Part shown: piece after piece, positions 12,658 through 54,791 of the stretch
Layout: every line of letters begins with the position of its first letter
Numbering within the stretch: the first letter of the stretch is position 1
NCBI GenBank assembly: GCA_021813765.1
Contig: JAKAJM010000001.1
Location: 3,230-67,229, forward strand
Length of the DNA: 64,000 bases
Direction of reading: 5' to 3'
Source: Nitrospirota bacterium
GTDB taxonomy: Bacteria; Nitrospirota; Thermodesulfovibrionia; Thermodesulfovibrionales; JdFR-88
Notes under the pieces: generated by a model
Seen by the model: only the letters and a program-made list of their open reading frames with translations
The model's database searches: none
What the model was told of the DNA's origin: nothing
Made by a program: the position numbers and the translations under genes

Positions 12658-12827
12658 CTAGTGTGGCGTTTCAAAAATAACTGTCATAATTCTGTCATTC
12701 CGGCCGGATTTATTCTGATTGCGGATAAAAACGGGCGGAATCGGCCTTAAAGGACAGATTCACGACGCGCTACGCTTGCGGGAATGACAATAAATTAATG
12801 CTAAAAACTTTTGAAACACCTCACTAG
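12658..12827. mobile_element. MITE-like element, family A
   Basis: CTAG-TGTGGCGTTTCAAAAA...TTTTGAAACACCTCA-CTAG ends; internal GTCATTCC/GGGAATGAC palindromes; homologous to 25622 and 54652. Confidence 0.8.
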
Positions 12828-12869
12828 CGCTTTTATTTGAACGGGAATTGTGAATCCCGCTCCACCTGG

Positions 12870-13736
12870 TCAGAGGTGCAGAAGCCTGTCTACCTTTATG
12901 AGCCCCCTGAAGGCCTCCCCGATGCCCAGAAGCTTTCCGCCGGGGGCCTTTATCCTTACACTCCCTGAAATGGACAGGCGTGTCCTGAAAGAGGCTCCGT
13001 TTTGTATCCTTTTCAAATCCCGGCCGTCTGTCTGAACCTCTTCAAGAAAGCCCAGGGCCCGGTCTATCTCAAGGAGCGCGGCGGGTGCTGTGAGCGCGCC
13101 CTCAGGGCCCAGCTCCTCCGGAAGGGCGGAGTCTTTTACGTCAAAAGGCCCTATCGCCGTCCTCCTCAGGCTTGCGACGTGGGCGAAGGTACCCATTTTA
13201 ATGCCGATGTCATCAGCAAGGGTCCTTATGTAGGTCCCTTTCGAGCAGGACACCAGAAGCCTGGCAAAAGGCGGCTCGTAGTGAAGCAGCCTTAGCTCGC
13301 TTATCTCCACCTCCCGCTCCTCGCGGGCAACCTCTATCCCCTGCCTGGCCAGCTCGTAAAGCGGCTTGCCGTCCTTCTTAAGCGCGGAATACATTGGCGG
13401 CATCTGCCTGGTCCTGCCAAGGAAAAGCGAAAGAGTTTCCTCAAGGGCGGCGCGGTCCACGTCCGCGCTGCCAGTGCCGGTAATGGCGCCGCAGGCGTCG
13501 AAGGTGTCCGTCCGCTGGCCAAATTTTATGGTGGTCTCGTATTTTTTGGGAAGGTCGAGAAGGAAACGGCTGACCTTTGTTGCCTCGCCGGTGCAGACGA
13601 TCAGAAGCCCGGTTGCCAGGGGATCGAGCGTGCCCGTATGGCCTGCCTTTTTGATGCCCATGCGCCTTTTTACAAGGCTTACCGCCTGCTGCGAGGTAAG
13701 CCCTTCTGTTTTGTCCAGCAAGATGACCTTATTCAT
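12870..13736 (-). CDS. truB: tRNA pseudouridine(55) synthase
   Basis: LLDK, GHTGTLDPLATG, PPMYSALK, CSKGTYIRTL. Confidence 0.96.
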   Translation of the reverse strand: MNKVILLDKTEGLTSQQAVSLVKRRMGIKKAGHTGTLDPLATGLLIVCTGEATKVSRFLLDLPKKYETTIKFGQRTDTFDACGAITGTGSADVDRAALEETLSLFLGRTRQMPPMYSALKKDGKPLYELARQGIEVAREEREVEISELRLLHYEPPFARLLVSCSKGTYIRTLADDIGIKMGTFAHVASLRRTAIGPFDVKDSALPEELGPEGALTAPAALLEIDRALGFLEEVQTDGRDLKRIQNGASFRTRLSISGSVRIKAPGGKLLGIGEAFRGLIKVDRLLHL

Positions 13737-13803
13737 GGTGGAGCCCATTATTTTACACAAAGCGGACAGGGTGAATCAAAAGAGGCAGGAAGCGGCCGGG
13801 TTT

Positions 13804-14460
13804 TCAGGCCTTTTTCTTTTTGGGCACTTTCTGCCAGTCCTTCAGGAACTTGTCCATCCCCGCGTCGGTCAGAGGGTGCCTGGTGAGCTGCTTGATGACC
13901 GAAAACGGGATGGTGGCCACATGCGCGCCCAGCCTTGCGGACTCTACCACGTGCATGGGGTTTCTGATGCTAGCAACGATCACCTGGGTATCGAACATGT
14001 AATTTTCGAGGATCGTCATTATGTCTGCGATAAGCTCCATGCCGGTCTGGCTGATGTCGTCAAGTCTGCCTACAAACGGGCTTATGTAGGTTGCTCCGGC
14101 CTTTGCGGCAAGAAGCGCCTGGGTGGGGGAGAATACTAGCGTCACGTTTGTCTTTATGCCAAGGGAAGAGAGTTTTTTTACTGCCTTAAGCCCTTCCTCC
14201 GTCATGGGTATCTTGACCACGATGTTCTTTGCGATGGCCGCAAGCGACCTGGCCTCCTTCACCATGCCCTCCGCGTCGAGCGCCACGACCTCCGCGCTCA
14301 CCGGCCCCTTCGCCACCCGGCAGATCTCCTTCAGGAGCCCGAAAGGTTCGCGGTTTTCCTTGCTGATCAAGCTCGGGTTGGTGGTGACCCCGTCAACCAC
14401 GCCCATGCTCCATGCCTCTTTTATCTCATTCAGATTTGCCGTATCGATGAATATCTTCAT
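13804..14460 (-). CDS. tal: transaldolase (fructose-6-phosphate aldolase subfamily)
   Basis: [41 protein letters not shown]. Confidence 0.93.
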
Positions 14461-14574
14461 AAAGCCGACTTCCCCCTGTTAAAAAACTTTTTTACGAGTT
14501 TTTATTTTGTTTTTTGTGCGTTATTATAGCAAAAAACCGGTGACCGGTTTTGTTTTTTGCCGCGGCAAAAAAAC

Positions 14575-21164: not shown

Positions 21165-22469
21165 ATGCACATAGGGATAATCGGCACAGGTTATGTGGGG
21201 CTGGTCACGGGCGCGTGTTTTGCCGAGTTCGGCGTGAACGTCGTGTGCGCGGACAAGGACAGAGAAAAGATAGCCTCCCTTGTTGCCGGGAAAATACCTT
21301 TTTACGAGCCGGGGCTTGAGGAGATAGTACAGAAGAACGTAAAGAAGGGTTTTTTGCGGTTCACGGACAGGCTTTCGGAGGCGGTGGACCAGAGCCTGGT
21401 GGTCTTTATCGCGGTAGGCACGCCACCCAGGGGCGACGGCTCGGCGGACCTGCGCTTCGTTGAGGAGGTGGCAAAAGAGATAGCCCTCAACCTGGACGGC
21501 TATAAGGTGGTCGTCACCAAGAGCACCGTCCCGGTGGGCACGGGAAGCAAACTTAAAAAGCTCATAAGGGAAAACCTTAAAAACGGCGGAGACTTCGATG
21601 TGGCCTCCAACCCCGAGTTTCTGAGGGAAGGCTCGGCCATCGAGGATTTCATGCGGCCAAACCGGGTGGTGATAGGCACGGAAAGCCCGCAGGCGGCGGC
21701 CATACTCAAGGACCTGTACAATCCCCTCTACCTCCTGGACACGCCGTTCGTGCTTACGGACATAGAGACCGCCGAGCTTATAAAATACGCTTCAAACGCC
21801 TTTCTTGCCACCAAGATATCTTTCATAAACGAGCTCTCCAGGCTTTGCGAGAAGGTGGGGGCGGACGTGGGCACGGTGGCAAAGGGAATGGGGCTGGACA
21901 AAAGGATAGGGTCAAAATTCCTGCACGCAGGTCCGGGTTTCGGGGGCTCATGCTTCCCAAAAGACACCAGGGCCATCATAAACCTTGCCCGGGAAAACGG
22001 CCTTGAGCTGAAGCTCATCGAATCCTCCGTGCGGGTTAACGAAGAGCAGAAAATGCTGATGGTGGACAAGATAAAAGACGCAATGGGCCAGGTCGGCGGA
22101 AAGACGCTCTCGGTCCTCGGGCTTTCCTTCAAGCCAAACACGGACGACATGCGGGAGGCCCCGGCCATAAGCATAATTGGCGAGCTTATGAAGCAGGGGG
22201 CCAGGATAAGGGCGTTTGATCCGGTGGCCGCGGGCACCGCCAAAAAGATGCTCCCTGACGGGGTTGCCTATTTCAAGGACCCGTACGAGGCGGCCATGGG
22301 GGCCGACGGCCTTGTGATCCTGACCGAGTGGAACGAGCTAAGGAACCTGGACATGGAGAGGATGCGCAGTGTCCTGGCGGGCAATTTTTTCTTCGATCTC
22401 AGGAATATATACGACCCGGCCAGGATGCGCCAGACGGGGTTCAAATACTACTCCGTGGGCAGAAGCTAG
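21165..22469 (+). CDS. ugd: UDP-glucose 6-dehydrogenase
   Basis: GTGYVG, AVGTP, KSTVPVGT, NPEFLREG, GFGGSCFPKD, FKPNTDD. Confidence 0.95.
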   Translation: MHIGIIGTGYVGLVTGACFAEFGVNVVCADKDREKIASLVAGKIPFYEPGLEEIVQKNVKKGFLRFTDRLSEAVDQSLVVFIAVGTPPRGDGSADLRFVEEVAKEIALNLDGYKVVVTKSTVPVGTGSKLKKLIRENLKNGGDFDVASNPEFLREGSAIEDFMRPNRVVIGTESPQAAAILKDLYNPLYLLDTPFVLTDIETAELIKYASNAFLATKISFINELSRLCEKVGADVGTVAKGMGLDKRIGSKFLHAGPGFGGSCFPKDTRAIINLARENGLELKLIESSVRVNEEQKMLMVDKIKDAMGQVGGKTLSVLGLSFKPNTDDMREAPAISIIGELMKQGARIRAFDPVAAGTAKKMLPDGVAYFKDPYEAAMGADGLVILTEWNELRNLDMERMRSVLAGNFFFDLRNIYDPARMRQTGFKYYSVGRS

Positions 22470-22639
22470 TGTACTGAGTCCAATAGTTCTTTACATTTGG
22501 TTTGGGATATTTTTGCTGTCATTCCCGCAAGCGGAGCGCGACGGGAATCAATCTTTTAAGGATGATTCCGCCCGTTTTTATCCGCAATCGTAATAGAAAT
22601 GACAGACTTATGACGGTTATTTCTGAAACACCATGCTAG
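22466..22639. mobile_element. chimeric MITE-like element (C-type left arm, A-type right arm)
   Basis: CTAG at both ends, left CTAG contains the ugd stop codon; GTCATTCCCGCAAGCGGAGCGCGACGGGAATC core. Confidence 0.75.
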
Positions 22640-22642
22640 GGG

Positions 22643-23938
22643 TCAGTCGAAGTACTTCTTTTTCGTCTTCAGGTATTCCTGCTCCACCTTGCTTCCCGAA
22701 TAGTCGTGGGGGTATTTGTACCCCTCGCCGTGGCCCAGCTCCTTTGCCCCCTTGTAGTGGGCGTCCTTCAGGTGGTCCGGCACCTCGAGCGTCCTTTCCT
22801 GGGCGACGTCCTTTAGCGCGCGCTCAAGCGCCATGTAGCTGGCGTTCCCCTTTGGCGCTTTTGCGGCATAGGCCACTGCGAGGGCCAGGGGGATCCTGCC
22901 CTCTGGCATCCCGACGAACTCGACGGCCCTGAGCGCGGACACGGCAACGGTCAGGGCCTGGGGGTCCTCAAGCCCGATGTCCTCGGCGGCAAAGATCACG
23001 ATCCTTCTTGCTATGAAGCGCGGGTCCTCCCCTGCGTATATCATCTTTGCCAGGTAATACATGGCCGCGTCCGGGTCCGAGCCCCTCATGCTTTTTATGA
23101 AGGCGGATATTGTATCGTAGTGCTGGTCCCCGGCCTTGTCGTAGACCACCGCCTTTTTCTGTATGGACTCCTCGGCGACCTGCCGGGTCAGGCGTATCCT
23201 GCCGTCAGCCCCGGGCCGGGTGGTCAGGGCCGCAAGCTCGAGCGCGGAAAGCGCCTTTCTTGCGTCTCCCTCCGAAAGCCTTGCAAGGTGCTCAAGCGCC
23301 TCATCGTCGGCCTGGACCTGCATGAGGCCAAGCCCCCTTTGTTCATCCGCAAGGGCAGTCTTCATCATTTTAAGGAGGTCCTCCTCCAAGAGGGGTTTCA
23401 GCTCGAAGACCTGGCTTCTGGAAAGCAGCGCCGCGTTGACATAGAAAAAAGGGTTTTCCACCGTTGCCGCGATAAGGGTGACATTTCCCTCCTCCACATC
23501 AGGCAGAAGCGCGTCCTGCTGCAGCTTGTTCATGCGGTGTATCTCGTCCAGGAAAAGGATGGTCTTGCGGCCGGCGCCCGCCTGCCTGCGGGCCTCCGCG
23601 ATCACCTTCCTCACTTCGGGAAGCCCGGCGGTGGCCGCGTTCAGCCACTCGAACCTGGCCCTGGTATGATTGGCGATGACCCTGGCCAGCGCCGTTTTAC
23701 CCGTTCCGGGCGGGCCGTAGAGGATTATGGAGGTTATCTTGTCAGCTTCGATGGCTCGCCTTAAAAGCTTGCCTTCTCCAAGGATGTGGGCCTGCCCAAG
23801 GTATTCATCAAGGCCGCGGGGGCTCATGCGGAAGGCAAGAGGGGGCTGCTTTCTTTGACTTTTCGGGTTTTTGTTTTTTTCGTCTTCCTGGCCGCCGGCT
23901 GCGCCTGCGGACAGGCTGCCGGGCTCGAAAAGCTCCAT
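22643..23938 (-). CDS. rarA: replication-associated recombination protein A
   Basis: PLAFRM, GQAH, GPPGTGKT, LDEIHR, QQDALLP, SAFIKSMRGSDPD, YKYPHD. Confidence 0.95.
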   Translation of the reverse strand: MELFEPGSLSAGAAGGQEDEKNKNPKSQRKQPPLAFRMSPRGLDEYLGQAHILGEGKLLRRAIEADKITSIILYGPPGTGKTALARVIANHTRARFEWLNAATAGLPEVRKVIAEARRQAGAGRKTILFLDEIHRMNKLQQDALLPDVEEGNVTLIAATVENPFFYVNAALLSRSQVFELKPLLEEDLLKMMKTALADEQRGLGLMQVQADDEALEHLARLSEGDARKALSALELAALTTRPGADGRIRLTRQVAEESIQKKAVVYDKAGDQHYDTISAFIKSMRGSDPDAAMYYLAKMIYAGEDPRFIARRIVIFAAEDIGLEDPQALTVAVSALRAVEFVGMPEGRIPLALAVAYAAKAPKGNASYMALERALKDVAQERTLEVPDHLKDAHYKGAKELGHGEGYKYPHDYSGSKVEQEYLKTKKKYFD

Positions 23939-24087
23939 AAGAAATTTTACCTTTTAAGGCGCAAAATTGACAATCGCGTCATAATCGCGTTATTTTTGGG
24001 CTTGACAACCACCCCGCGTAACTGTTAATAATTTGCGTCCTCTTTTTGGAGGACCCCAGTGGGGAGGGGCGTTTTGCCTCAAGCGAC

Positions 24088-25467
24088 ATGGCCGACAGAA
24101 CAGTTCTTCTAATCAGCAACGACGCTGCATACGCGGGATTTTTAAAAAAAAACCTCGAACCGTCAGGTTATACGTTTGAGTTAAGGGAATCCCTTCCTGC
24201 CAACCTGAGGCGGCCCGGGTATGAGGCCCGCCCTCTGATGATAGACCTGGGGATGCCGCGCTCCGTCGAGATACTTTCTTCTTTCAAGGCCTACCATCCG
24301 GAGGCCAGCATCATAGCCGTGTCCAATGGCAATTTCAGGAAAATGGAGGAGGCCCTGAAGGCCGGGGCCACCTACGCGGTCTTCGAGAGAAACAGCGGAG
24401 ACCTCCATACCCTGAAGGAGACCCTCCGCCACATATACGAAGGTTTTTCGGCCAGGCAGGAGCTGGAAATGCTCAGGGCCATCACCGAGCCAAGGCTCGT
24501 GGCCAAAAGCGCCGGGATGAAGACGGCCATGAGGCTGGCAGATGACGCCGCGACGCTGCCTTTCCCCAATGCCGACAAGCCGGTGGTGCTTTTTGGGCCG
24601 CCAGGCTCCGGGCGCGGACTTATCGCAAAGTACATACATTCAAGTAGCCACAGGGCCGGCATGCCGTTTGTGATGATGAAGGGTGGCGACATGCTGGCAG
24701 ATTCGGTCATGGAGGCGAGGGGCGGCACGCTTTTCATAAAAGACCTGAAGGCGCTTGGACAAGAGAACATGGCCCTCATCAAGGACCTGATAACCCGGAA
24801 GGAGTTCCGCTTCACCGGCGACGGACACTGCAGCGACGGCGATGCCCCCGGCGCCACCGGGGCGGATGTGCGCGTCATGCTTGGATGTTTTTGCCCCGAG
24901 GACTCGGACTTGCTCCAGGGCATTGATTACATGGGCATCGAGGTCCCCCCGATCGAGCAGCGCCGCGAGGACATAGTGCCCCTTGCAAACAGCTTTCTGG
25001 AGGAGCTTTCGGCGTTCCTCAAGGCCGGGAAGAAATATTTCACCAAAAGCGCGAGGGAGGCGCTTATGGCAAGGGAATACCCGGACGGGGTGGAAGGACT
25101 TAAAAAGCTTGTGCACAGGGCCTACTTCCTGGGCACGGCAAGCGCGATAGGTGACAAGGACCTCCTGGGCTCGGAGTTCCTTGGGAAATGCTCTTTCAAG
25201 GAGTTCCTTGATGAAAGGCTCAGGCTGTATCTAAGGAAGATGTCCCAGCTTGAACGCTCGAACCTTTATGATACCGTCGTTGGCGAGGTGGAAAAGGCTC
25301 TCATAGAGCTGGCCTTAAGCGAAATGGGGGGAAACAAGCTGAGGGCGGCAAAGGCCCTCGGAATGAACCGAAACACCTTCAGGGCAAAGCTTAAAAGCCT
25401 CAAGATCAGTGGAGATGGAAAGCGCCCCGCTGCCGCAGTCAAAGAGCCGGCGGAAAAACAAAAATAG
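24088..25467 (+). CDS. NtrC-like regulator: receiver, degenerate sigma54 AAA+ domain and Fis-type HTH
   Basis: GPPGSGRG, GGTLFIKD, RREDI, YPDG, C-terminal GGNKLRAAKALGMNRNT; no GAFTGA loop. Confidence 0.8.
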   Translation: MADRTVLLISNDAAYAGFLKKNLEPSGYTFELRESLPANLRRPGYEARPLMIDLGMPRSVEILSSFKAYHPEASIIAVSNGNFRKMEEALKAGATYAVFERNSGDLHTLKETLRHIYEGFSARQELEMLRAITEPRLVAKSAGMKTAMRLADDAATLPFPNADKPVVLFGPPGSGRGLIAKYIHSSSHRAGMPFVMMKGGDMLADSVMEARGGTLFIKDLKALGQENMALIKDLITRKEFRFTGDGHCSDGDAPGATGADVRVMLGCFCPEDSDLLQGIDYMGIEVPPIEQRREDIVPLANSFLEELSAFLKAGKKYFTKSAREALMAREYPDGVEGLKKLVHRAYFLGTASAIGDKDLLGSEFLGKCSFKEFLDERLRLYLRKMSQLERSNLYDTVVGEVEKALIELALSEMGGNKLRAAKALGMNRNTFRAKLKSLKISGDGKRPAAAVKEPAEKQK

Positions 25468-25474
25468 TAAAAAC

Positions 25475-26097
25475 CAGTGTGGCGGTCGTAAAGAAATTCC
25501 TTTACATAACACTTTTCAATCGAGTTAAGAAAAAGTAAGCATATCCAGGGGCGTCATGCCCAAGTATCCCTGTCTTTTTAAATTCTTAAAACGGATAAAA
25601 TCGGGCGGGTATCGAATGGCGCTAGTGTGGTGTTTCATAAATAACCGTCATAAGCCTGTCATTCCGTCTTGTCCGGAATCATCCTTTAAAGATTGATTCC
25701 CGACGCGCTCCGCTTGCGGGAATGACAACAAATTAATGCTAAAAACTTTTGAAACACCACACTAGTTTAAGCAATCCCGGCATTATGAAAGGCTTTGTAA
25801 TTATTCAAAGATTTCAGATGCTTTTTCCGTCATTCCGGGCTTGACCCGGAATCCGGCGACTTGGCTTTGTTTGCAGGTAAAAGTCACCGGCCAGGGAGCG
25901 GCCTTCGCCGGTATGACGGCTATGCGGCATAATGACCAGTACCTTTTTAAATGAGTTTTTCATGGAAGAAACCCTTAAACCAGCGCCATTCGGGCGGGTA
26001 TCCATTTTGACGTTTTCATAAATTGGATTCCCGCCTGCGCGGGAATGACAGCCAAAACACTTCCGAATCAAATATAAAAAAACGTTGACGCACCACT
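25475..26097. repeat. degenerate family-C element with nested elements and REP palindromes
   Basis: C-like left arm CAGTGTGGCGGTCGTAAAG...CTTTACAT and right arm GACAGCCAAAACAC...CGTTGACGCACCAC; internal palindromes at 25828-25919 and about 26024-26051. Confidence 0.6.
25622..25765. mobile_element. MITE-like element, family A
   Basis: perfect CTAGTGTGGTGTTTCA...TGAAACACCACACTAG inverted ends around a REP doublet. Confidence 0.85.
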
Positions 26098-26123
26098 CCG
26101 GGCAACTATGCGCGGGACGAGGG

Positions 26124-26942
26124 CTACAGGCGCGTGCCGCTTAGGGCGTCTTTGCAGGGGCAGTTCCTTTGTCCAGGCATGAGAGAGAGGGCCCTTTTGA
26201 TCAGCGCCATCACTGAGGCGGTGCTTTTGGCCATTGTCTCCACCACCTCCGTGGTGGTCAGCTTTTCCGCGGAAGACACTCCCGCCGCAAAGTTTGTGAC
26301 CACGCAGATTGCGGCGTAGCATATCTGGAGTTCCCTGGCCAGCGCTGCCTCAGGCATCCCGGTCATGCCCACGATGTGCCCCCCGGAGCGTCTGAAAAAT
26401 TCGATCTCCGCCCGGCTCTCAAGCCTTGGCCCGTTCGTGCAGACGTAGGTTGCGCTCCTGGAGACGGCGATCCCTTCGGCCTGCGCGGCAGCCTGGAGGA
26501 CAGGTCTCATCTGAGGGCAGTAAGGGTCTGTGAAATCTATATGCACTACGTCCTTCCCGTCATAGAAAGTTGATTCCCGCGCTCCCTGGGTGAAGTCCAT
26601 CGCCTGGTCCGGCAGCACGATGCTTCCGGGGGGAAGCCCGGGGTCTACCGCCCCCACCGCGTTTATCCCCAATATACGCTCCACTCCCATCGCCCTCATG
26701 CCCCAGATGTTTGCCCTGTAGTTTACCTTGTGCGGGGGGATGGAATGCTTTGCCCCATGGCGCGGGAGAAAGACCACCTGCAGGCCGGCTGGGCCTTCCC
26801 CTCCGGGGGCCTCTTCAAATCCGGCCACGATATAACGCCCTGAAGGCTCCCCGTAAGGGGTGCTTATGCTTTCCTCTTTAAGGCGCCGGAACCCGGTGAC
26901 CTCGTAGAGTCCGCTTCCGCCTATAATGCCAAGTTTGACCAT
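26124..26942 (-). CDS. mtnP: S-methyl-5'-thioadenosine/thioinosine phosphorylase
   Basis: GIIGGSG, TPYG, PRHG, NYRANI, GPRLES, GMTGMPE, VTNFA. Confidence 0.9.
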   Translation of the reverse strand: MVKLGIIGGSGLYEVTGFRRLKEESISTPYGEPSGRYIVAGFEEAPGGEGPAGLQVVFLPRHGAKHSIPPHKVNYRANIWGMRAMGVERILGINAVGAVDPGLPPGSIVLPDQAMDFTQGARESTFYDGKDVVHIDFTDPYCPQMRPVLQAAAQAEGIAVSRSATYVCTNGPRLESRAEIEFFRRSGGHIVGMTGMPEAALARELQICYAAICVVTNFAAGVSSAEKLTTTEVVETMAKSTASVMALIKRALSLMPGQRNCPCKDALSGTRL

Positions 26943-27159
26943 GCTATAATACTAACAAAAGTAAGGCCGCGAATAAAAATGGAAAAATCCGCAGAAATAA
27001 AATTTTTCAAGGAAGCAAAAAACAGCTTTTTAAAAGATCCGGCTCCCAGGGCATATCTTAAAAAATAAAATAAAATAAATTAAAACTCTCTTCCCGGCGG
27101 TCAGGGCGGATAAAAATAAAAAATTTAAAAATCAAAAATCGGGGTAGGCAAAAACTGAA

Positions 27160-28545
27160 ATGACAGATACCGGTCTTATGAAAGAGACGCTTGCCGCGGT
27201 GCTTTCCGCAAAGGGGATCGATTACGCGGACCTGTATGTGGAGGCCAGCCGGAGCACAGGCATCCAGATAGAGGACAGCAAGGTTGAAAAGCTGCTTGAA
27301 GGCTCCGATTCGGGGGCGGGGCTCAGGCTCATCCGTGAAGGCAAGACCTCGTATGCGTATACGAACAGGCTGGCGAAAGAGGATTTTTTGCAGATGGCCG
27401 CGGAGCTCAGTACTGCGGCAGTCCGGGGCGGCCCCGTCAGGGATCTGGACCTGACCAGCAGGGCCCCGCAAGTGGAGTATGCGATCAAAATAGACCCCGG
27501 CCTGGTCGCGCTTGAAAAAAAAGTGGGGATGCTCAAGGAGGCCGAAAGGGCCGCGCGGGCCTATCATGGCAGCATAAAACAGGTAAGCGTGACCTACAGG
27601 GAGACCGCCCAGAAGGTCCAGATAGCGTCCTCCGAGGGTTTCCTGGCCGTGGACGACCGCATTCAGACGGTTCTTCTGGTGAATGTGATCGCCCGTGACG
27701 GCGAGGTAGTGCAGACTGGCTATGAGGCCGTTGGCGGGGCCATGGGCTTTGAGCTCTTCGACGAGGTCCCCGCGGTTGAGGTGGCGCTAAAGGCGGCAAA
27801 AAAGGCTGTGATGATGCTTAAGGCAAGGAGAGCGCCCGGCGGCAGGATGCCTGTCGTCATATCTTCCCAGGCCGGAGGCACGATGATACACGAGGCCGTT
27901 GGTCATGGACTTGAGGCCGACCTTTCGCAGCAGGGGCTTTCCATCTATTCCGGCAAGATGGGGCAGAAGATAGCAGCCGGCATCATAAACGTGGTGGATG
28001 ACGCCACATTGCCGGGCAAGCGCGGCTCCTTCCGGTTCGACGACGAGGGCACGCCTTCACAAAAGACCGTCCTTATAAAAGACGGCGTGCTCACCGGCTT
28101 CATGTACGACAGGCTTTCGGCCATGAAGGCGGGGGCAAACCCCACCGGAAACGGCAGGAGGCAGTCCTACCGGCACAGGCCCATCCCCCGGATGACAAAC
28201 ACGATGATCTGCCCCGGCAAGACCCCGGCGGACGAGATACTTAAAAGCACCCCGAGAGGGCTTCTGGTTAAAAAGATGGGCGGCGGCCAGGTAAACACCC
28301 TCACCGGAGATTTTGTTTTCGATGTCCAGGAGGGATATCTGATAGAAAACGGCCAGGCAGGCCCCCCTGTCCGCGGTGCGACACTGGCCGGAAACGGCCC
28401 GCGTGTCCTCATGGATATAGACATGGTAGGGTCGGACCTCGGTTTTTCGATCGGGACCTGCGGCAAGGACTCCCAGGGGGTCCCGGTCTCTGACGCCCAG
28501 CCCACCATCAGGGTGCCTGAACTGGTGGTCGGAGGCGAGTCCTGA
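27160..28545 (+). CDS. tldD: TldD metalloprotease
   Basis: HEAVGHGLEAD, FDDEG, TGNGRR, PRMTNT, GTCGK, QPT. Confidence 0.93.
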   Translation: MTDTGLMKETLAAVLSAKGIDYADLYVEASRSTGIQIEDSKVEKLLEGSDSGAGLRLIREGKTSYAYTNRLAKEDFLQMAAELSTAAVRGGPVRDLDLTSRAPQVEYAIKIDPGLVALEKKVGMLKEAERAARAYHGSIKQVSVTYRETAQKVQIASSEGFLAVDDRIQTVLLVNVIARDGEVVQTGYEAVGGAMGFELFDEVPAVEVALKAAKKAVMMLKARRAPGGRMPVVISSQAGGTMIHEAVGHGLEADLSQQGLSIYSGKMGQKIAAGIINVVDDATLPGKRGSFRFDDEGTPSQKTVLIKDGVLTGFMYDRLSAMKAGANPTGNGRRQSYRHRPIPRMTNTMICPGKTPADEILKSTPRGLLVKKMGGGQVNTLTGDFVFDVQEGYLIENGQAGPPVRGATLAGNGPRVLMDIDMVGSDLGFSIGTCGKDSQGVPVSDAQPTIRVPELVVGGES

Positions 28546-28644
28546 CGGCAGCTGGAGTGCCCGGATGTGGCCTTTTTGCAACAGGTGAAGTTTATTAACA
28601 ACATATGCGCATGAAAAACTCTTTTATTTATAAGTACTTCTGTC

Positions 28645-28660
28645 TGGCACGTTCATTGCA
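28645..28660 (+). promoter_or_regulatory. sigma54 (-24/-12) promoter of lpxC
   Basis: TGGCACGTTCATTGCA matches TGGCACG-N4-TTGCW. Confidence 0.75.
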
Positions 28661-28673
28661 AAAGAAAGAAGTG

Positions 28674-29555
28674 ATGAGAAACCAGCAGACATTGGCAAAA
28701 GAAGTGACGGTAGAGGGGGTAGGGCTGCACACCGGCGTCCAGGCCGCCATAAGGCTTAAGCCGGCGCCCAAGGACACCGGCATAATCTTCACTATAAAAG
28801 GCGGGGGGGCGTCCATAAGCGCCAACGTGAACGCGGTCTGCGACACCGCGTTTTCCACCACCCTTGGGGCGGACGGCACGAGGGTGAAGACGGTGGAGCA
28901 TCTGCTTGCAGCCCTTTCCGGGCTTGGCATAGACAACCTTCTGATAGAGATCGACGGCCCTGAAGTGCCTATACTGGATGGCAGCTCCAAGCGGTTCGTT
29001 GATTCCATAATCGTGGCTGGCATTGCCCGCCAGCCATCCAAAAGGCCGTACCTGAAGATAACAAAGCCGTTCATATTCAAGGACGGCGACGCGGAGGTTT
29101 CGGCGATCCCGTATGAGGGGAGGCGGATATCCTACCGCATATTTTATCCGCACAGGCTTCTTGGACGGCAGGAGATGACCTTCGAGTTCGAAGAGGGCCT
29201 TTTCATAACCGATATAGCGCCCGCCAGGACGTTCGGGTTCCTGAAAGACGTCCAGTACCTAAGGACGATCGGCCTTGCAAAGGGCGGCTCGCTTGAAAAC
29301 GCGGTCATACTGAATGACACGGAGGTCCTGAACTCTTCCGGGCTCAGGTTCAAGGACGAGTTTTTGCGTCACAAGCTCCTTGATTTCATCGGCGACATGT
29401 CCCTGATGGGGTTCCCGGTGCAGGGGCACATGAAGGCAAGCAGGACCGGGCACACCAGCAACCTCAAATTTGCGAAGGCCCTGCTTGCCGCAACCGATTG
29501 CTGGCAGATCGCCTACGACGTGGAGCAGGGTTCCGCCAGCCTTAGATACGCCTAA
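28674..29555 (+). CDS. lpxC: UDP-3-O-acyl-N-acetylglucosamine deacetylase
   Basis: QQTL, GVGLHTG, TVEHLLAAL, EVPILDGS, ARTFGF, HKLLD, GH; start GTG 28671 or ATG 28674. Confidence 0.95.
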   Translation: MRNQQTLAKEVTVEGVGLHTGVQAAIRLKPAPKDTGIIFTIKGGGASISANVNAVCDTAFSTTLGADGTRVKTVEHLLAALSGLGIDNLLIEIDGPEVPILDGSSKRFVDSIIVAGIARQPSKRPYLKITKPFIFKDGDAEVSAIPYEGRRISYRIFYPHRLLGRQEMTFEFEEGLFITDIAPARTFGFLKDVQYLRTIGLAKGGSLENAVILNDTEVLNSSGLRFKDEFLRHKLLDFIGDMSLMGFPVQGHMKASRTGHTSNLKFAKALLAATDCWQIAYDVEQGSASLRYA

Positions 29556-29590
29556 ACTGCCTGCCTGCACTCCTTTTTCTGAATAAAAGA

Positions 29591-29637
29591 AGCTGGGAAG
29601 AGTTTTTTTCTTAAAGCCCTAAAAAATCTTCCCAGCT
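29591..29637. terminator. probable bidirectional terminator between convergent lpxC and the histone-like gene
   Basis: AGCTGGGAAG/CTTCCCAGCT stem with A- and T-rich flanks. Confidence 0.55.
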
Positions 29638-29663
29638 CAGCTTTTTTCCTCAAAAAACGTTCT

Positions 29664-29888
29664 TTATTTCTTTTTCGCTGCCGTCTTCTTTGCCGCAGGC
29701 TTGGCAGCCGCCTTTTTTGCTGCGGGCTTGGCTGCTGCCTTTTTTGCTGCGGGCTTGGCTGCTGCCTTCTTCGGAGCGGCCGCCTTCTTCGTAACCGTGG
29801 CCTTAGCCGCAGTTTTCTTCGCTGCGGGTTTGGCAGCCGCCTTCTTCGGAGCTGCCGCCTTTGCTGCCGGTTTCTTCGCTGTCGCCAT
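29664..29888 (-). CDS. histone H1-like Lys/Ala/Pro-rich DNA-binding protein (74 aa)
   Basis: AAGGAGGTG SD before ATG 29888; MATAKKPAAK followed by repeated AAAKPAAKK units with synonymous codon variation. Confidence 0.85.
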   Translation of the reverse strand: MATAKKPAAKAAAPKKAAAKPAAKKTAAKATVTKKAAAPKKAAAKPAAKKAAAKPAAKKAAAKPAAKKTAAKKK

Positions 29889-29946
29889 CTTTTTCACCTC
29901 CTTTCTCGTGGGCCCTGGCCCCTTTCGGGGCCGGGGCGGCGGTTTT

Positions 29947-30489
29947 TTAACCTCTCCCCAAAAGAGGAATCCTCCTGTCAGAAAGTATCTTCTGAAGGGC
30001 GCTTTCCCGCGCTTTTTTCCTCTGGCGGTACTCCTGCTCGCCCATGCGAGTGAGCACCACCCTGCATCCGAAATGCCTGGCAGTTTCCCTGATGGCCTTT
30101 TCGTCGATCTCGCCGTCCGCAACGACCATGAGGTTAACGGTCTTGACGTCCCGCCCCTCCGCGTAAGGGCCATAGATGAAGGCGTACGCGGCGCTGCCCC
30201 TGAGCAGGGCCTTGAGGCTGCCGGCAAGACCAAGGGATTTCGTTATCAGATTTTTAAGTTCAGAATAAAAGGGAGAGGTTGTGTCCGCCTGGAAGTATTT
30301 CAGATTGGCGACCTTTTCACTCCGGACGACCCCGATCTTCTCGAGGTTGTCCAACTCTCTTTTGACCGCCGAGGGGTTTTTATCGAGGAGCCTCGATATC
30401 TCCCTCATGTAAAACTTGTCCTCCGGGCTGTTTAACAGCAGCGAGAGGACCTCCGCCCTTATAGCCGATGAAAAAAGCTTTTTTAACAT
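29947..30489 (-). CDS. winged-helix DNA-binding protein fused to a degenerate nucleotidyltransferase domain
   Basis: LFSSAIR...FYMREISR...VKRELDNL; C-terminal AFIYGPYAEG...VNLMVV; TTGACA promoter upstream. Confidence 0.75.
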   Translation of the reverse strand: MLKKLFSSAIRAEVLSLLLNSPEDKFYMREISRLLDKNPSAVKRELDNLEKIGVVRSEKVANLKYFQADTTSPFYSELKNLITKSLGLAGSLKALLRGSAAYAFIYGPYAEGRDVKTVNLMVVADGEIDEKAIRETARHFGCRVVLTRMGEQEYRQRKKARESALQKILSDRRIPLLGRG

Positions 30490-30632
30490 CTGGTTTTATA
30501 TAAAGATATTTTTGCTCAAATGTCAACAAAAAAATCAATTTTTTGAACACAAGATGCCTAAAAGGAAACGATTCCTTTTAGGCAACGATCGTTTGACGTT
30601 GCAGTTCCATGTAGCCTGCTGCGGGGTTTCCT

Positions 30633-30808
30633 TAGAACCTATCTCAGAATCGCTTCCGGCTGCAAGAGGCTGAAATCAAGACATACGGCGTCATCAAGGG
30701 AAATCATCCTCGACGCTGCTGCACCTCCGGGCGCTTACCCCTCGCTTCCTTGTCTGCCACGATTTCCTCTCTCTTTCGCTTCAAAATCAATTTTGAGATA
30801 GGTTCTAG
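30633..30808. mobile_element. MITE-like element, family B
   Basis: TAGAACCTATCTCA...TGAGATAGGTTCTA inverted ends; second copy at 36814-36993. Confidence 0.8.
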
Positions 30809-31018: not shown

Positions 31019-31021
31019 TTG

Positions 31022-35356: not shown

Positions 35357-36747
35357 GAAAGTCTGCCCAGGGCCTCCGCGACCAGTTCAGAAAGCTCCGG
35401 GAATATGTGCATGCCGCCTGTGATGTAGTCCGCGGTCCCGCCATTTGCGATGGTGTTTGCAGCTTCCTGTATAAGTATGGGGGCCAGGGGGCCAAGGATA
35501 TGGAAGCCAAGCAGCCGCCTGGTCTTCTTCTGCGCTATGGCCTTTGCAAAGCCCGCGGACTCCCGCATGGCGATCCCCTTTGCCACATCCGAATAGGAAG
35601 CCCGGCCCACCAGAACGCCATCTCCGTAACGCACCCTGGCCTCCTTTTCGGTAAGCCCCACCGAGGCCACCTGCGGGTGGGAGAAAATGGCGTGGGGGAC
35701 CGAATCGAAATCCATCATCAGCTTCTTATCATGCGTTGCGTTATGCCAGGCAATTTCGGACTCCCTGTCGCCCGCATGGGTGAACATCTGCCTGCCTATG
35801 GCGTCCCCAAAGGCCCAGGTGTTTTCGATGTTCGTAAGGAGGCCGTCATCAACCTTTATGAAATTCCTTTCATCAGTAAGGATGCCCGCCTCCCGGGCCC
35901 CTATGAGGTCCGCATTGGACACCCTGCCCACCGCCACCATCAGGCTCTCCGCCGCGAATTTCAGTTTTTTCCCGTTTTTATCCAGGCAGGAGGCAAACAC
36001 CATGGCCCCTTCGCGCCAGGCCCCGGTCACCGTTACTTCCTTGTTGATAGCGGCATATTTTGACATCTCCGCCTCAAAGGCGCCGATGATCTCCGGCTCC
36101 TCCCGGGCTATGAGGCTGTCCCCGGCCTCCAAAATGGTGACCTTTGTGCCCATGGCAGAGAAAAAATGCGCATATTCCACTGCTATATATCCGCCCCCGA
36201 TCATGATTATGCTTTCGGGTGGCTTTTGAAGCTCCAGGACAGACTCGTTCGTTAGGTATCCGGTATCTTCCAGACCCTCTATCCGGGGTATCAGAGGTCT
36301 GGAGCCCGAAGCGATAAAGGTCTTTTTCCCCCTTATCAGCTGTCCTTCGAACCTCCCTGTCAGCTCAAGCGTGCGCGGCCCTGTAAAATGCGCGGGCACA
36401 TCATAGTAGTCCAGGTTTTTTTTGCTGGCTTTCTCTATCTCCCGCCTTAAAAAATCCCTTCCATGATTTCTGGCCTTGTTCATCCTGGCCATAATGGAGG
36501 CAAAGTCCACATCCAGGACCTGAGCCTTCACCCCTATGCGGCCGGCCTCCTCGATCTCCCTTATCCTGTCAGCCGGGTAGATGAGCGTTTTTGAAGGCAC
36601 GCAACCGTAATTAAGGCAGGTGCCGCCCAGATGGTCCTTGCTTACCAGCGCCACCTTGAGGCCGGACCCAACCGCCTTGAACACGACGTTCATCCCCACG
36701 CCTGCGCCAATTACAAGGACATCATATTCCTTAACATTCCTTGCCAT
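35353..36747 (-). CDS. class-I pyridine nucleotide-disulfide oxidoreductase (dihydrolipoyl dehydrogenase/mycothione reductase-like)
   Basis: GGTCLNYGCVPSK, IGGGYIAVE, AVGR, AFGD, dimerisation domain. Confidence 0.88.
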   Translation of the reverse strand: MARNVKEYDVLVIGAGVGMNVVFKAVGSGLKVALVSKDHLGGTCLNYGCVPSKTLIYPADRIREIEEAGRIGVKAQVLDVDFASIMARMNKARNHGRDFLRREIEKASKKNLDYYDVPAHFTGPRTLELTGRFEGQLIRGKKTFIASGSRPLIPRIEGLEDTGYLTNESVLELQKPPESIIMIGGGYIAVEYAHFFSAMGTKVTILEAGDSLIAREEPEIIGAFEAEMSKYAAINKEVTVTGAWREGAMVFASCLDKNGKKLKFAAESLMVAVGRVSNADLIGAREAGILTDERNFIKVDDGLLTNIENTWAFGDAIGRQMFTHAGDRESEIAWHNATHDKKLMMDFDSVPHAIFSHPQVASVGLTEKEARVRYGDGVLVGRASYSDVAKGIAMRESAGFAKAIAQKKTRRLLGFHILGPLAPILIQEAANTIANGGTADYITGGMHIFPELSELVAEALGRLS

Positions 36748-36813
36748 GTCTCACCCCCTCCGGAGACGCCCTGTTTTTAAAAATCTTATCACCAAAAAAC
36801 GGGCAGGAGAATT

Positions 36814-36993
36814 TAAAACCTTTCTCAAAATCGCTTCCGGCTACAAGAGGTTGGAATCAAGGCATACGGCGTCATCAAGGGAAAACCGTCCTCAACGCAG
36901 CTCTGCTGCGCCTCCGGGCGCTTACCCCTTTCTTCCTTGTCTGCCACGATTTCCGCTCTTTCGCTTCAAAATCAATTTTGAGACAGGTTCTAG
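36814..36993. mobile_element. MITE-like element, family B
   Basis: homologous along its length to 30633-30808; ends TTTTGAGACAGGTTCTAG. Confidence 0.8.
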
Positions 36994-37197
36994 TGTATTG
37001 CTTGTAAATCTCTTTACATTAGAAAGCTCCAAGGAATAAATCCGTTTTTTCGTCATTCCCTAGGTCTTAATCGGGAATCCAGTGACTTTGATTTTTTTGT
37101 CGGCCATAAGACAACGTCGCTGGATTCCCGCTTACTGCATGCGGGAATGACGGCCAAAATACTCTAACAAATGTAAAGAAGCGTTGGACGCACTACA
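36990..37197. mobile_element. MITE-like element, family C
   Basis: close reverse complement of 30805-31018. Confidence 0.85.
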
Positions 37198-37390
37198 GTG
37201 TCTCATAAACGACCGGTGTTATTAATTTGGCCGAAAGCATAGCTCCCGGTTGTCATTCCCGCAAGCGCAGCGCGCCGGGAATCCTTCTTAAAGACAAGAA
37301 AGATTCCGGACAAGCCGGAATGACAAAATTAAGATAAAATAAGCGATCTTAGCCATATTATTTATAACACCAGCTATTTGAGAGACATTA
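37197..37390. mobile_element. MITE-like element, family D
   Basis: AGTGTCTCATAAA...TTTGAGAGACATT ends, inner GGTGTTAT/ATAACACC repeat, REP doublet core. Confidence 0.7.
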
Positions 37391-37525
37391 CACTTGTGGT
37401 TTTTTGTGTGTCATAACTGCCGCATGTTATTATGAATGACGTTTCTTTTTTGTGCCGCTGACTGAGCCAGAAATAAAATCCCGTTTGTAAAATATGCCGG
37501 CACAGGAGGTTTTTTCATTTTCAAG

Positions 37526-38794
37526 ATGAATTCAGAGGCGAAAGTTGCATTCGGACACGAATCCGGGCGGGGAAAAACGGCTTTCAGAGTGCTTGGGGCG
37601 ATAAGCTTCTCTCATTTCCTGAACGACACCATGCAGTCCCTGATCCTTGCCATCTATCCCCTGCTTAAGGGCAAGTTCGAGCTCAACTTTGCGCAGGTCG
37701 GGCTGATAACCCTGAGTTACCAGCTCACCGCGTCGCTGCTTCAGCCTCTGGTGGGGCTCTATACGGACCATCATCCAAAACCCTATTCGCTTGCCTTCGG
37801 CATGGGGTGCACGCTGACCGGTCTTATTGCGCTTGGGATGGCGCCCAGCTACGGGTGGGTCCTTTTTGCGGCCGCCCTGGTGGGCACCGGCTCTTCGGTC
37901 TTTCATCCGGAGTCCTCGCGAGTGGCCAGGATGGCCTCCGGAGGGCGGCACGGGCTGGCACAGTCTTTTTTTCAGGTCGGCGGCAACCTGGGGACCGCGA
38001 TGGGCCCGCTGGCGGCGGCATGGTTTGTCATCCCGCACGGTCAGGGCAGCGTGGCCTGGTTCTCGCTGGCCGCTTTTCTGGCGATACTGGTGCTTTTGCA
38101 GGTTGGCGGCTGGTACAGTCGCCACCAAAAAAGGGTTTTTGCTCCTTCTGCCGCCCACGGGTCTTCTTCCCGCGGGCTTCACCCGGAGCTTCCGGCGCGC
38201 AAGGTGGTCCTGTCCATAGTCATCCTCCTGGTGCTGGTCTTTTCAAAATACTTCTACCTGGCCAGCATCAGCAGTTATTTCATTTTTTACCTGATGCACA
38301 AGTTCCACCTTTCCGTGCAGTCCGCGCAGGTGCATCTCTTTTTGTTTCTGTTTGCGGTCGCATCCGGCACCTTTTTTGGCGGCCCGATAGGCGACCGCAT
38401 AGGAAGGAAGCGGGTCATCTGGATATCCATCCTTGGCGCCGCCCCGTTTGCCCTGGCCCTGCCGTATGCAAACCTGACGTGGACCGGCATACTGGCCTTT
38501 ATCACGGGTTTCATACTGGCCTCCGCCTTTTCGGCCATTATCGTTTACGCCCAGGAGCTCATCCCGGGCAAGGTTGGGACCATCTCCGGGTTCTTTTTTG
38601 GGTTCGCCTTCGGGATGGGCGGCATAGGGGCCGCTGTGCTTGGCAAGCTGGCCGACAGGCACGGCATAATATTCGTCTATCACCTGTGCTCGTACCTGCC
38701 GCTTCTTGGCATGCTCACGGCCTTCCTGCCGGACCTGAGGCACGGAGCGCTGCGCAGGGACTTTTTTCCAGGCCCGCGCCTGAAGGCAAGATAA
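37526..38794 (+). CDS. fsr: MFS transporter, fosmidomycin-resistance (Fsr) family
   Basis: SHFLND, SLLQP, GSSVFHPE, QSFFQVGGNLG, GGPIGDRIGRK, AQELIPG. Confidence 0.9.
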   Translation: MNSEAKVAFGHESGRGKTAFRVLGAISFSHFLNDTMQSLILAIYPLLKGKFELNFAQVGLITLSYQLTASLLQPLVGLYTDHHPKPYSLAFGMGCTLTGLIALGMAPSYGWVLFAAALVGTGSSVFHPESSRVARMASGGRHGLAQSFFQVGGNLGTAMGPLAAAWFVIPHGQGSVAWFSLAAFLAILVLLQVGGWYSRHQKRVFAPSAAHGSSSRGLHPELPARKVVLSIVILLVLVFSKYFYLASISSYFIFYLMHKFHLSVQSAQVHLFLFLFAVASGTFFGGPIGDRIGRKRVIWISILGAAPFALALPYANLTWTGILAFITGFILASAFSAIIVYAQELIPGKVGTISGFFFGFAFGMGGIGAAVLGKLADRHGIIFVYHLCSYLPLLGMLTAFLPDLRHGALRRDFFPGPRLKAR

Positions 38795-43318: not shown

Positions 43319-43411
43319 TGGTGTTATTATTTTCAAAAAAGTGCGAAAAGTCAAGATGTAAAAGAGCATCTGGAGGTCATTTGATTTTTTGCGCCTGCTT
43401 CTGATTAAATG

Positions 43412-43580
43412 TAGAACGTTTACAGGTGCCCTGACGGGCATAAGAGGGAATCCCGTGGAAATCGGGAGCGGTCCCGCCGCTGTAACCGGGGACAAGCCTT
43501 CGGTAAAGCCACTGTGCCTTATAAGGGGCATGGGAAGGCGAAGGTGAGGATGAACCGGGAGCCAGAAGACCTGCCTGCAA
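43412..43580 (+). ncRNA. cobalamin riboswitch
   Basis: AGGTGC...AAGAGGGAA...GAAATC...CGGTCCCGCCGCTGT...GCCACTG...GGGAAGG...GAGCCAGAAGACCTGCC; boundaries approximate. Confidence 0.95.
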
Positions 43581-43667
43581 ACAGTTGGAAAAGGAACTTC
43601 TCGCGGAAGAAGGAAGGACGGGGATGGTTAAAAAACCCGTCCGCAAGGGATGAAGCAAACTGGGTGC

Positions 43668-51091: not shown

Positions 51092-51098
51092 AAGAGAG

Positions 51099-53450: not shown

Positions 53451-53546
53451 AAAAGGGGGCGGGTTTTTACCCGTCCCCACCTGCCCGCCGCAGTTTCATG
53501 GAAGCGCAGCCGGTATCGCGCCCCGAAAGTCCCCGGCAAAATTATT

Positions 53547-53581
53547 TGTCATTCCCGCAAGCAACAGCGCGCCGGGAATCC
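53547..53581. repeat. single REP-like palindrome
   Basis: TGTCATTCCCGCAAGCAACAGCGCGCCGGGAATCC. Confidence 0.7.
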
Positions 53582-53649
53582 AGCCTTTTAAGGCCGGTTC
53601 CGCCCTTTTTTCCTTCGGAAATTCTTGATAGAAAGGGAGTATTTGATTC

Positions 53650-54195
53650 ATGAGGCAGGCAAAAAAAGAGATCAAGGACATGGCAGTGCTTACCGGTCTG
53701 CTGAATACCTCTCATGTAGGCCGCCTTGGCACCATCGGCGCGGACGGATGCCCCATGATAAAGCCGCTTAATTTTGCATTCACAGGGCAAAGGCTTTATT
53801 TTCATACGGCCATGGCTGGGGAGAAAATGGAAGACATCAAAAGAGATCCCAGAGTCTGCTTTGAAACGGACCTTCCCATCGCACTTGTCAAAAGCCGGAG
53901 CGAGCCCTGCAAGGCCAAATATCTCTTTCGGAGCTTGATCATAAAGGGCAAGGCCCGCATTGTGGAGGACCGGAACGAAAAACTAACCGCTCTGCGGCTG
54001 CTTATGGAGAAATACCAGCCCGAAGGCGGCTACGGAAATTTCCTCGAAGAGAAGCTGCGGATAACGGGGGTCGTATGTATCGAAATCGAGGAAATGACCG
54101 GCAAGGAAGACCTTGGCAACGGGGCGGTGCGGGAGAGGATATTAAAGATTTTGGAGGAGAAGAAAAAATTGCCGGTAGTCATGGAGCCTGAATAA
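53650..54195 (+). CDS. pyridoxamine 5'-phosphate oxidase-like (NimA-like) flavin-binding protein
   Basis: VGRLG, PLNF, LYFH, GEK, PRVCFE, FRSLIIKG, MTGK. Confidence 0.85.
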   Translation: MRQAKKEIKDMAVLTGLLNTSHVGRLGTIGADGCPMIKPLNFAFTGQRLYFHTAMAGEKMEDIKRDPRVCFETDLPIALVKSRSEPCKAKYLFRSLIIKGKARIVEDRNEKLTALRLLMEKYQPEGGYGNFLEEKLRITGVVCIEIEEMTGKEDLGNGAVRERILKILEEKKKLPVVMEPE

Positions 54196-54231
54196 AAAAT
54201 TTCAGACCTTTGATATGGTCGGCTTGAGCTT

Positions 54232-54489
54232 ATGAAACGGATTACAAAAAGAGCATGGTTCAGCAAGAAAAGGATCGGATGGGGCCTGCGGGCTTCAAGC
54301 TGGCAGGGATGGCTGGCAACGCTCATTTTTGTGCTGGCCGTTTTTCTTGATCGCTTTTACTCAAAGAAAGGCACGCTCCGTATTGCCGTTTTTGTTTTCG
54401 CGGTGACTGTATATGTCACGGTGGTCATTCTTACGGGTGGCAGGCTGGGAATCGGAGGCGGCAATTCAGAAAACGATAAAGGAGAATGA
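54232..54489 (+). CDS. small two-TM membrane protein
   Basis: WFSKKRIGWGLRASSWQGW motif followed by two hydrophobic helices. Confidence 0.7.
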   Translation: MKRITKRAWFSKKRIGWGLRASSWQGWLATLIFVLAVFLDRFYSKKGTLRIAVFVFAVTVYVTVVILTGGRLGIGGGNSENDKGE

Positions 54490-54651
54490 AAATACGGCTC
54501 CTTTTTGGATTTTGACCTTTCGGCTGCACCTTTGATCTTGCCTCTCACGTTCTGCCGATAATCGATATTCCCGGCATGCTCTCGATCCGAAGACTTGCAG
54601 CCGTGACGTCTTAAAAATGCAGGAAGACGCTTGCGTTATAAGTAATGGGCG

Positions 54652-54791
54652 CTAGTGTGGTGTTTCATAAACATCATAAGTCTGTCATTCCGGCTTGTCC
54701 GGAATAGTCTCTAAAAGATTGATTCCCGACGCGCTCCGCTTGCGGGAATGACAACAAATTAATGCTAAAAATTTTTGAAACGCCCTACTAG
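54652..54791. mobile_element. MITE-like element, family A
   Basis: CTAGTGTGGTGTTTCATAAA...TTTTGAAACGCCCTACTAG; close copy of 25622-25765. Confidence 0.85.

Follow-up and report, generated by a model that had tools for sequence, protein, structure and literature searches.

The window analyzed here is a 64,000-nucleotide stretch of a Nitrospirota genome (contig C50, positions 3230–67229, of the source genome G000; the assembly comprises 2.58 Mb in 116 contigs, has 54.6% G+C, and is 85% complete). Its 58 non-overlapping open reading frames (ORFs) were assigned to ordinary housekeeping genes by a Pfam scan; none of them matched a transposase Pfam family, which agrees with the initial annotation of this DNA. 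Among these genes lie ∼12 non-coding, TA/CTAG-bounded elements, which range from 140 to 231 bp in size and whose terminal inverted repeats (arms) define families designated by letters. All arm families but B enclose a core of two hairpins in inverted orientation. [quoted passage not shown] The elements and hairpins found (window coordinates; H1, H2, and H3 designate hairpin types) are:

2751–2876, plus strand: diverged E-family MITE with a hairpin pair at 2793–2857; 137 nt align with the E representative at 80% identity
12658–12827, plus strand: A-family MITE, 170-bp form, located between the patatin/Omp85 and truB genes, which converge; its hairpins are a long one on the left and H2
22466–22639, no strand assigned: chimera whose left arm is of C/K type and whose right arm is of A type, absent from the initial annotation
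25622–25765, plus strand: A-family MITE, 144-bp form; core H1-spacer-H2 between terminal inverted repeats that are perfect over 16 nt
25829–26049, no strand assigned: two single hairpins (25829–25852, plus; 26027–26049, minus) inside further nested repeat units
30633–30807, plus strand: B-family MITE with TAGAACCTATCTCA ends and no hairpin pair, its terminal TA common with the next element
30805–31018, plus strand: C-family MITE, arms matching IS630-family ends, core apparently the two ends of an ssn-type cassette
31023–31053, plus strand: single H2 hairpin, 4 nt after the C element
35057–35121, no strand assigned: hairpin pair without recurring flanks, the only truly bare pair in the window
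35160–35356, minus strand: C-family MITE with the stop codon of a Pyr_redox gene (35353–35355, minus strand) in its terminal CTAG
36814–36992, plus strand: B-family MITE, first of a B-C-D array between divergent genes
36990–37197, minus strand: C-family MITE, 97% identical to the 30805 copy
37191–37396, plus strand: D-family MITE, left terminus truncated at the C junction, core H2-spacer-H1
53510–53605, plus strand: partial I-family (A-like) element with one hairpin (53548–53579); 87.5% identity over 96 nt
54652–54791, plus strand: A-family MITE of 140 bp, recognized by arm pattern and alignment

Arm families were defined from alignments around the hairpin pairs; an automatic finder of outer inverted repeats was too noisy. 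The ends proposed initially are present where they had been placed, far above chance expectation. In the window, the arm A pattern matched six times (at most two mismatches; 0.01 expected), that of arm C six times (0.33 expected), and that of arm B six times (0.20 expected); four of the B matches lie at the two B elements, and those at 1714 and 7607 look like chance. The hairpin head GTCATTCC was found 23 times (1.82 expected). Only the terminus of D had been misread: its real end is CTAG(A/T)GTAGTGTCTCATAAACGAC, which is truncated in the window copy where D abuts C. Genome-wide, BLAST matches covering at least 85% of the query numbered 12 for A, 12 for B, 10 for C, and 3 for D. The initial count of about a dozen elements was correct for the window, but four arm families were too few: there are at least eight in the genome, and the window contains whole copies of A, B, C, D, and E plus the partial I. 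The ends of E are TTACTAAG...CTTAGTAA / TTACTAAGAC...GTTCTTAGTAA (from the alignments around hairpin pairs), those of F are TTAACC...GGTTAA, those of K are CTAGTGTC...GGACACTAG, and the left end of G is TAGTTTCTGTTGCGGAA...; I is an A-like family, and H and J were also found in the alignments, without resolved ends. As had been claimed, the sequence itself shows a head-to-head hairpin pair within A, C, and D but not within B. B, the only family without a core, has at least 20 matches in the congeneric genome G002. A long form of B (C27:22124–22380, C116:16741–16997, and C21:37107–37363) carries a conserved ∼75-bp insert at position ∼40, which was considered as a candidate hairpin pair and rejected, as it is not one. 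A signature of the arm clade was counted 26 times in G000, 25 times in the congeneric G001, and 15 times in G002, and is present in 12 of 41 relatives overall (the reversed control pattern gave no match); a contig titled Candidatus Sulfobium mesophilum bears one of the same elements.

The hairpins of the inner layer have a YGTC tag and a stem that begins with AT; a CCA tail is often present as well. Stems measured 7–8 bp in 119 of 142 hairpins and the CCA tail was present in 43; loops were 5 nt long in 30 and 14 nt long in 32, with many other lengths besides. The consensus YGTCATTCCSG...CSGGAATC was fitted by 111 units (0 in shuffled sequence), and 17 sites fit the dRS3 string ATTCCC-N8-GGGAAT. 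The resemblance to CGTC-tagged repetitive extragenic palindromes (REPs) and to dRS3, proposed from the outset, is borne out by tag, stem, and tail, which fit the CGTC-1 class as defined in the text of Di Nocera, De Gregorio and Rocco (2013; PMC3733652), where Neisseria dRS3 is included in that class. The A copy at 25622 folds as nested hairpins with a z-score of −6.9 and the C copy at 30805 folds with one of −7.4. The long hairpin H3 (12694–12741; also in other copies of the 170-bp A form and of H, I, and J) resembles the short hairpin with an extra loop insert of ∼26 nt, which may constitute a third level of nesting; its word ATAAAAACGGGC is among the commonest 12-mers of the genome (35 copies).

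Genome-wide, the pairs are embedded in larger repeats almost without exception. For 65 pairs with perfect GTCATTCC...GGAATGAC ends, the 14-nt flanks recurred elsewhere on both sides in 53 cases, on one side in 10, and on neither in 2, one of which is the pair at 35057–35121, compared with 0.9 recurrences per 130 random 14-mers. Because 63 of 65 pairs have a recurring flank, the repeating unit is the larger element, and bare pairs are exceptional. Most of the hairpins initially regarded as bare are accordingly not so: that at 2790 belongs to the E-family element, that at 53547 to the partial I-family element, and that at 25828 lies, as read from the sequence, between another pair of CTAG-type ends; that at 31022 is indeed a single hairpin, albeit only 4 nt from C. 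In the region 25610–25993, a further CTAG-bounded element (CTAGTTTAAGC...CCCTTAAACCAG), itself located between inverted GAATGGCG/CGCCATTC words, has the A copy of 25622 at its terminal CTAG, and the same arrangement with a hairpin pair is found in G009 (L129). Comparison extended to three congeneric genomes (G001, G002, and G003), a set of 41 relatives, and an order-wide set of 201 genomes. The pair alone occurs in 22 of the 41 relatives, in many genera, with hairpins nearly invariant and spacers and flanks differing; the combination of arms and core is almost confined to this genus, C-type composites being found in three genera of two families. This distribution supports the cores as an independent, older layer.

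The outer layer was traced to full-length ISs with the same ends, the existence of which had been left to be verified. A scan for the A terminus (one genome per species) gave at least 124 DNA stretches with a match, of which 80 were listed. Among the matches listed, the 16-nt terminus occurs with 16/16 identity as pairs 1,187–1,189 bp apart around DDE_3 plus helix-turn-helix (HTH) proteins of 361–367 aa (L026, L051, and L076; DDE_3 match with E = 3e-23), the ∼1.19-kb elements of Pseudomonas among them, and as ∼150-bp pairs in Pseudomonas, Comamonadaceae, and Paucibacter, the interiors of which are unrelated to the G000 elements. Homologues of the A-type transposase are present in 15 of the 201 genomes of the same order, in CTAG-flanked elements of 1,137–1,211 bp with ends CTAGTGTnnTG. 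In ungapped alignments with IS630-family elements of the order, arm C matched the element of G144 at 31/40 and 31/40 positions and that of G038 at 31/40; arm D matched the element of G139 at 36/40 and 34/40 (complete copy on C62) and at 29/33 (window copy); and the right end of arm K matched the element of G200 at 30/40. The C arm still codes for the last 10 residues of the G038 transposase; otherwise, the elements showed no similarity to transposases. None of six full-length IS630-family elements contained the hairpin. The G038 IS630-family transposase gene with C-type ends has an in-frame TGA (L149:1853–1855) in place of the conserved Trp of the TSSWLN motif, and judged by this feature the copy is probably dead. 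An IS630 fragment with which a G002 contig ends (L153) was considered and discarded: its subterminal motif is absent from G000, and the end of the fragment could not be delimited.

Mobility was most directly evident from one E copy, which is flanked by TA at both ends and interrupts the right arm of an I-family element; in two I paralogues the TA is uninterrupted. Arms and core must therefore have moved together in this instance; across the eight E copies, arms are 96.7% and cores 94.7% identical. Elements that abut have a single TA in common, and the ends of A, B, C, and D show a conserved flanking C...G. As the duplication is TA, the family is IS630 and not IS5. The initial assignment to "IS630/IS5-type" elements is thus narrowed to the former: IS5, which requires a 4-bp duplication (CTAG/YTAR) and a DDE_Tnp_1 transposase, is ruled out by the TA duplication, by the single TA between abutting elements, and by the DDE_3 transposases, and PF01609 had no match in G000, nor had PF01797, PF13358, or PF01548. 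IS630 itself targets TA within CTAG. In G000, CTAG is ∼twelve-fold under-represented (804 sites, where base composition predicts 9,923), and MITE termini account for 68 of the 804. Two gene stop codons lie inside terminal CTAGs, namely that of the Pyr_redox gene listed above and that of a UDP-glucose dehydrogenase gene (22467–22469) at the 22466–22639 chimera; the same type of chimera is also found in L069. Synteny with G001–G003 is conserved at 71–85% identity, and five window intervals holding elements are shorter there: three sites measure 12–86 bp (the 22466 site, 12–69 bp; 25436–26124, 50–86 bp; 30593–31393, within 12–86 bp) and two are much shorter than in the window. Of the empty sites anticipated in relatives, the unoccupied short gaps were thus found, but not exact empty sites with a readable duplication. 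Rebuilt empty sites (left and right flanks joined) had no match in the genome, with a copy finder that missed most C and E copies, and Logan contigs of four runs from one study, covering 22000–38000, contained no clean empty allele; these contigs break at repeats, and their joints reflect other copies.

A partner gene flanked by the cores, of either the GIY-YIG or the Y1/RAYT type, had been suggested initially, and it is the former that was found in relatives. Among 23 small GIY-YIG loci, hairpins were present on both sides in 5, on one side in 4, and on neither in 14. Six further loci, picked because hairpin matches lay nearby, had H1 on both sides (4), another hairpin type on both sides (1), or none (1). 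In the four loci with H1, of which G027 has two and G024 and G038 one each, the bracketing hairpins are identical to H1 and the gene codes for a 105-aa GIY-YIG protein. The H1 hairpin on the 3′ side extends over the end of this gene (L229–L231 and L233), comprising its last six codons, IPDKPE, plus the stop codon; the hairpin sequence is therefore also constrained by coding. This arrangement corresponds to the NTS-ssnA-NTS arrangement of the Ssn nucleases, enzymes that cut single-stranded DNA, as given in the main text of Chenal et al (2025; PMC11893778). In the congeneric G002, the hairpins and outer flanks around a gene for a 96-aa GIY-YIG protein align with the two halves of the C core, so that, judged by alignment, the C-family pair appears to be the two ends of a GIY-YIG (ssn-type) cassette minus the gene. 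Neither the PDB (nothing informative) nor NCBIfam (nothing above cut-off) added to the identification of the G002 protein. No intact small GIY-YIG gene is present in the G000 assembly, which contains an ssn-like pseudogene (C83:3266–3560) that is frameshifted and whose 5′ hairpin is degenerate, and a 3′ ssn remnant with its hairpin (C102:10974–11073). A 143-bp MITE of G025, a genome of another genus (C95; L236), has K-type arms around a hairpin pair of a different type (GTCATTGCGAG...), and this type brackets a GIY-YIG gene in G007. One arm family therefore carries different host hairpins.

Taken as IS630-family MITEs, the elements would depend on an IS630-type transposase supplied in trans, which would cut at the terminal inverted repeats. 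The element would then be pasted into a TA, preferably within CTAG, whereby the TA is duplicated and CTAG rebuilt at both ends. Since CTAG would be rebuilt at both ends and is very rare in the genome, new copies would tend to land at stop codons and beside older copies, and the B-C, B-C-D, and K-A arrays would result from each insertion recreating the preferred target. Several points weigh against this explanation. No IS630 transposase was found in G000, either with the DDE_3 profile or by tblastn, in an assembly that is incomplete and fragmented; arms B, E, F, and G could not be paired with any full-length IS; and an A-type-ended IS was not seen among 14 loci fetched from the order, the A match coming from other phyla. 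TA duplication is direct for one E copy only, and for A to D the case rests on flank statistics and common TAs; the orthologous intergenic DNA of the congeners (∼80% identity) is too diverged for exact empty sites. Divergence of arm and core is uncorrelated within families (r from −0.2 to −0.5) and in A and C the core is somewhat the better conserved part, a pattern that could reflect conversion or selection on the hairpins rather than simple joint descent. Most loops are longer than the published NTS/SRM patterns: NTS matched three times within one mismatch (a degenerate SRM pattern matched 40 times, compared with 22–25 in shuffled sequence). Finally, no arm family with both core-less and core-bearing copies was found in G000, and the order of events is for this reason not readable. 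Hence, of the initial proposal that REP doublets were captured in IS-derived ends, the two-layer nesting stands, but capture as the direction of events is not demonstrated.

How the two layers came together is a separate matter. Pairs are held by at least seven arm families in G000, and this recurrence, together with the occurrence in three genera and the hairpin type of G025, points to a systematic process, which could be homing into MITE loops, capture of filler DNA during repair, or selection for a folding core. Homing, which concerns the origin of the composites and is compatible with their spread as IS630-family MITEs, is a possible though tentative answer: the pairs would be mobile miniature ssn cassettes that inserted secondarily, and by preference, into the single-stranded apical loop exposed by a MITE hairpin, after which the composites were amplified. 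Pairs do lie near the middle of at least eight unrelated arm families, K-type arms hold different host-specific hairpin types, and both the A-type MITEs of other phyla and the full-length ISs are without hairpins; moreover, single-stranded DNA is what Ssn enzymes cut (PMC11893778, main text), and REP dimers "inserted within long palindromic sequences" are mentioned in the text of PMC3733652. However, no family with both filled and unfilled copies was found from which an insertion site, a duplication, or a target motif could be read; no consensus is common to the arm–pair junctions, and simply removing the gene from an H1-ssn-H1 cassette would not yield the common H2-spacer-H1 pair.

Somewhat more doubtful is that gap repair after excision of an IS630 element copied each end and switched template to a hairpin pair, yielding arm-pair-arm. 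The C arms match IS ends for ∼31–34 nt and then diverge, and palindromic hairpins at more than 100 sites would offer microhomology. Yet microhomology at the junctions of arm and core was not demonstrated, ∼15–30 nt between the IS-derived part and the hairpin stay unexplained, and the mechanism is argued by analogy: template switching that leaves filler DNA during gap repair is a feature of eukaryotic cut-and-paste elements. Already disfavored, and improbable, is a mosaic in the manner of the Neisseria NIMEs, in which units would be shuffled by recombination at the hairpins and TA/CTAG ends would be incidental. The C/A chimeras of the window and L069, hairpin units that are common to families while spacers are family-specific, and the joining of dRS3 with many repeat families in NIMEs (Bentley et al, 2007; PMC1797815, as described in its text) would be in keeping with it; the arms, however, equal IS630-family ends, a duplicated TA has an intact empty paralogue, the limits of the units are inverted repeats and not hairpins, and isolated copies occur at unrelated loci. 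Movement of the pairs, as REP doublets, by a Y1 (RAYT) transposase is hardly credible, since, for all that a head-to-head doublet fits and Y1_Tnp genes occur in 30 of the 41 relatives, there is none in G000, none of 12 checked Y1 loci is bracketed by the hairpins (which bracket GIY-YIG genes instead), and three Y1 genes of G001 have inverted repeats of their own. In the REPIN-RAYT system, reportedly set out by Bertels and Rainey in 2011, an inverted hairpin pair is the gene-less derivative of a hairpin-flanked gene; the inverted pair is what the present elements have in common with it, whereas their partner is GIY-YIG and not Y1, and the pairs travel inside another transposon. The three Y1 transposase-like genes of G001 (∼220 aa; L160, L161, and L162), with 22–26-nt inverted repeats containing GGGAC(G/A)G, have the "TIRYT" arrangement named in the text of PMC3733652; one of the three is carried by a short contig on which the synteny goes on at window position ∼39820.

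Compared with known systems, the G000 elements resemble IS630 MITEs in TA duplication, in CTAG-flanked ends, in terminal matches of 16–40 nt to DDE_3 plus HTH elements of ∼1.14–1.21 kb, in their size of ∼140–230 bp without coding capacity, and in their dependence on a transposase in trans. They differ in that, instead of leftover sequence from the parent IS, the interior in at least seven families consists of a hairpin pair belonging to a second repeat system, and in that the partner transposase is absent from this assembly. [quoted passage not shown] Unlike NTS, loops are mostly 5–14 nt or longer with few copies fitting the published patterns, and gene-less pairs are almost always inside IS630-type arms; the terms "MITE" and "Nitrospir" are absent from that main text. 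CGTC-1 REPs, in the text of PMC3733652, likewise have a CGTC/TGTC tag, AT-starting stems, and CCA tails, occur mostly as head-to-head dimers and between convergent genes, and have dimers enclosed by longer palindromes; their loop is defined as 4–5 nt, a length of 5 nt being found in 30 of 142 hairpins here. The same text mentions, for Anabaena variabilis and Halothiobacillus neapolitanus, TA-ended palindromes with REP dimers in them, leaves these palindromes uninvestigated, reports no transposase for CGTC repeats, and does not name Nitrospirota; what differs here is that the arms can be linked with IS630-family elements, and the hairpins with ssn genes. NIMEs, as described in the text of PMC1797815, are alike in hairpin class, in the many associated repeat families, and in arrays, but there dRS3 hairpins bound the units, whereas here TA-ended inverted repeats bound them with hairpins internal, and the arrays would be explained by insertion at regenerated CTAG. 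In a literature search to which subscription journals and supplements were external, the only passage found on hairpin pairs inside IS630 MITEs was that in the text of PMC3733652. The nesting, initially thought not to be described, is indeed hardly described, but both layers are published and the nesting is mentioned in passing. Each layer being known already, the sequence comparisons support as new the tie of arms to the IS630 family, the tie of hairpins to ssn genes, and the apparent coupling of two non-autonomous systems.

Other repeats and RNA features were also recorded. Rfam gave no RNA family at the elements; its sole match in the window was a cobalamin riboswitch at 43407–43592 (122 bits), upstream of the second cbiM and adjoining a cbiMNQO/nikR cluster. 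No abundant 12-mer of the DNA-uptake-sequence kind was present in the genome. The commonest 12-mers are A-rich words such as AAAAAACAAAAA (133 copies; e.g., in flanks on C27, C107, and C78), which outnumber every hairpin word.

CGTC/dRS3/NTS hairpins span many bacterial phyla, and it was not until 2025 that their nuclease partner was described. The regularity found here (63 of 65 pairs nested; arms A, C, D, and K from distinct IS630-family elements; E with TA duplication) makes spread by IS630, or targeting of MITEs, testable. Annotating such repeats as "REP" or "MITE" alone misses one of the two layers. It is conceivable, though not the likelier outcome, that the two repeat systems are specifically coupled, gene-less ssn cassettes dispersing mainly as passengers of IS630 MITEs or homing into MITE loops. 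If so, one non-autonomous element would be the parasite, or the preferred host, of another, which would provide a dispersal route for a repeat class of many phyla and would explain the REP dimers found in TA-ended palindromes in 2013.

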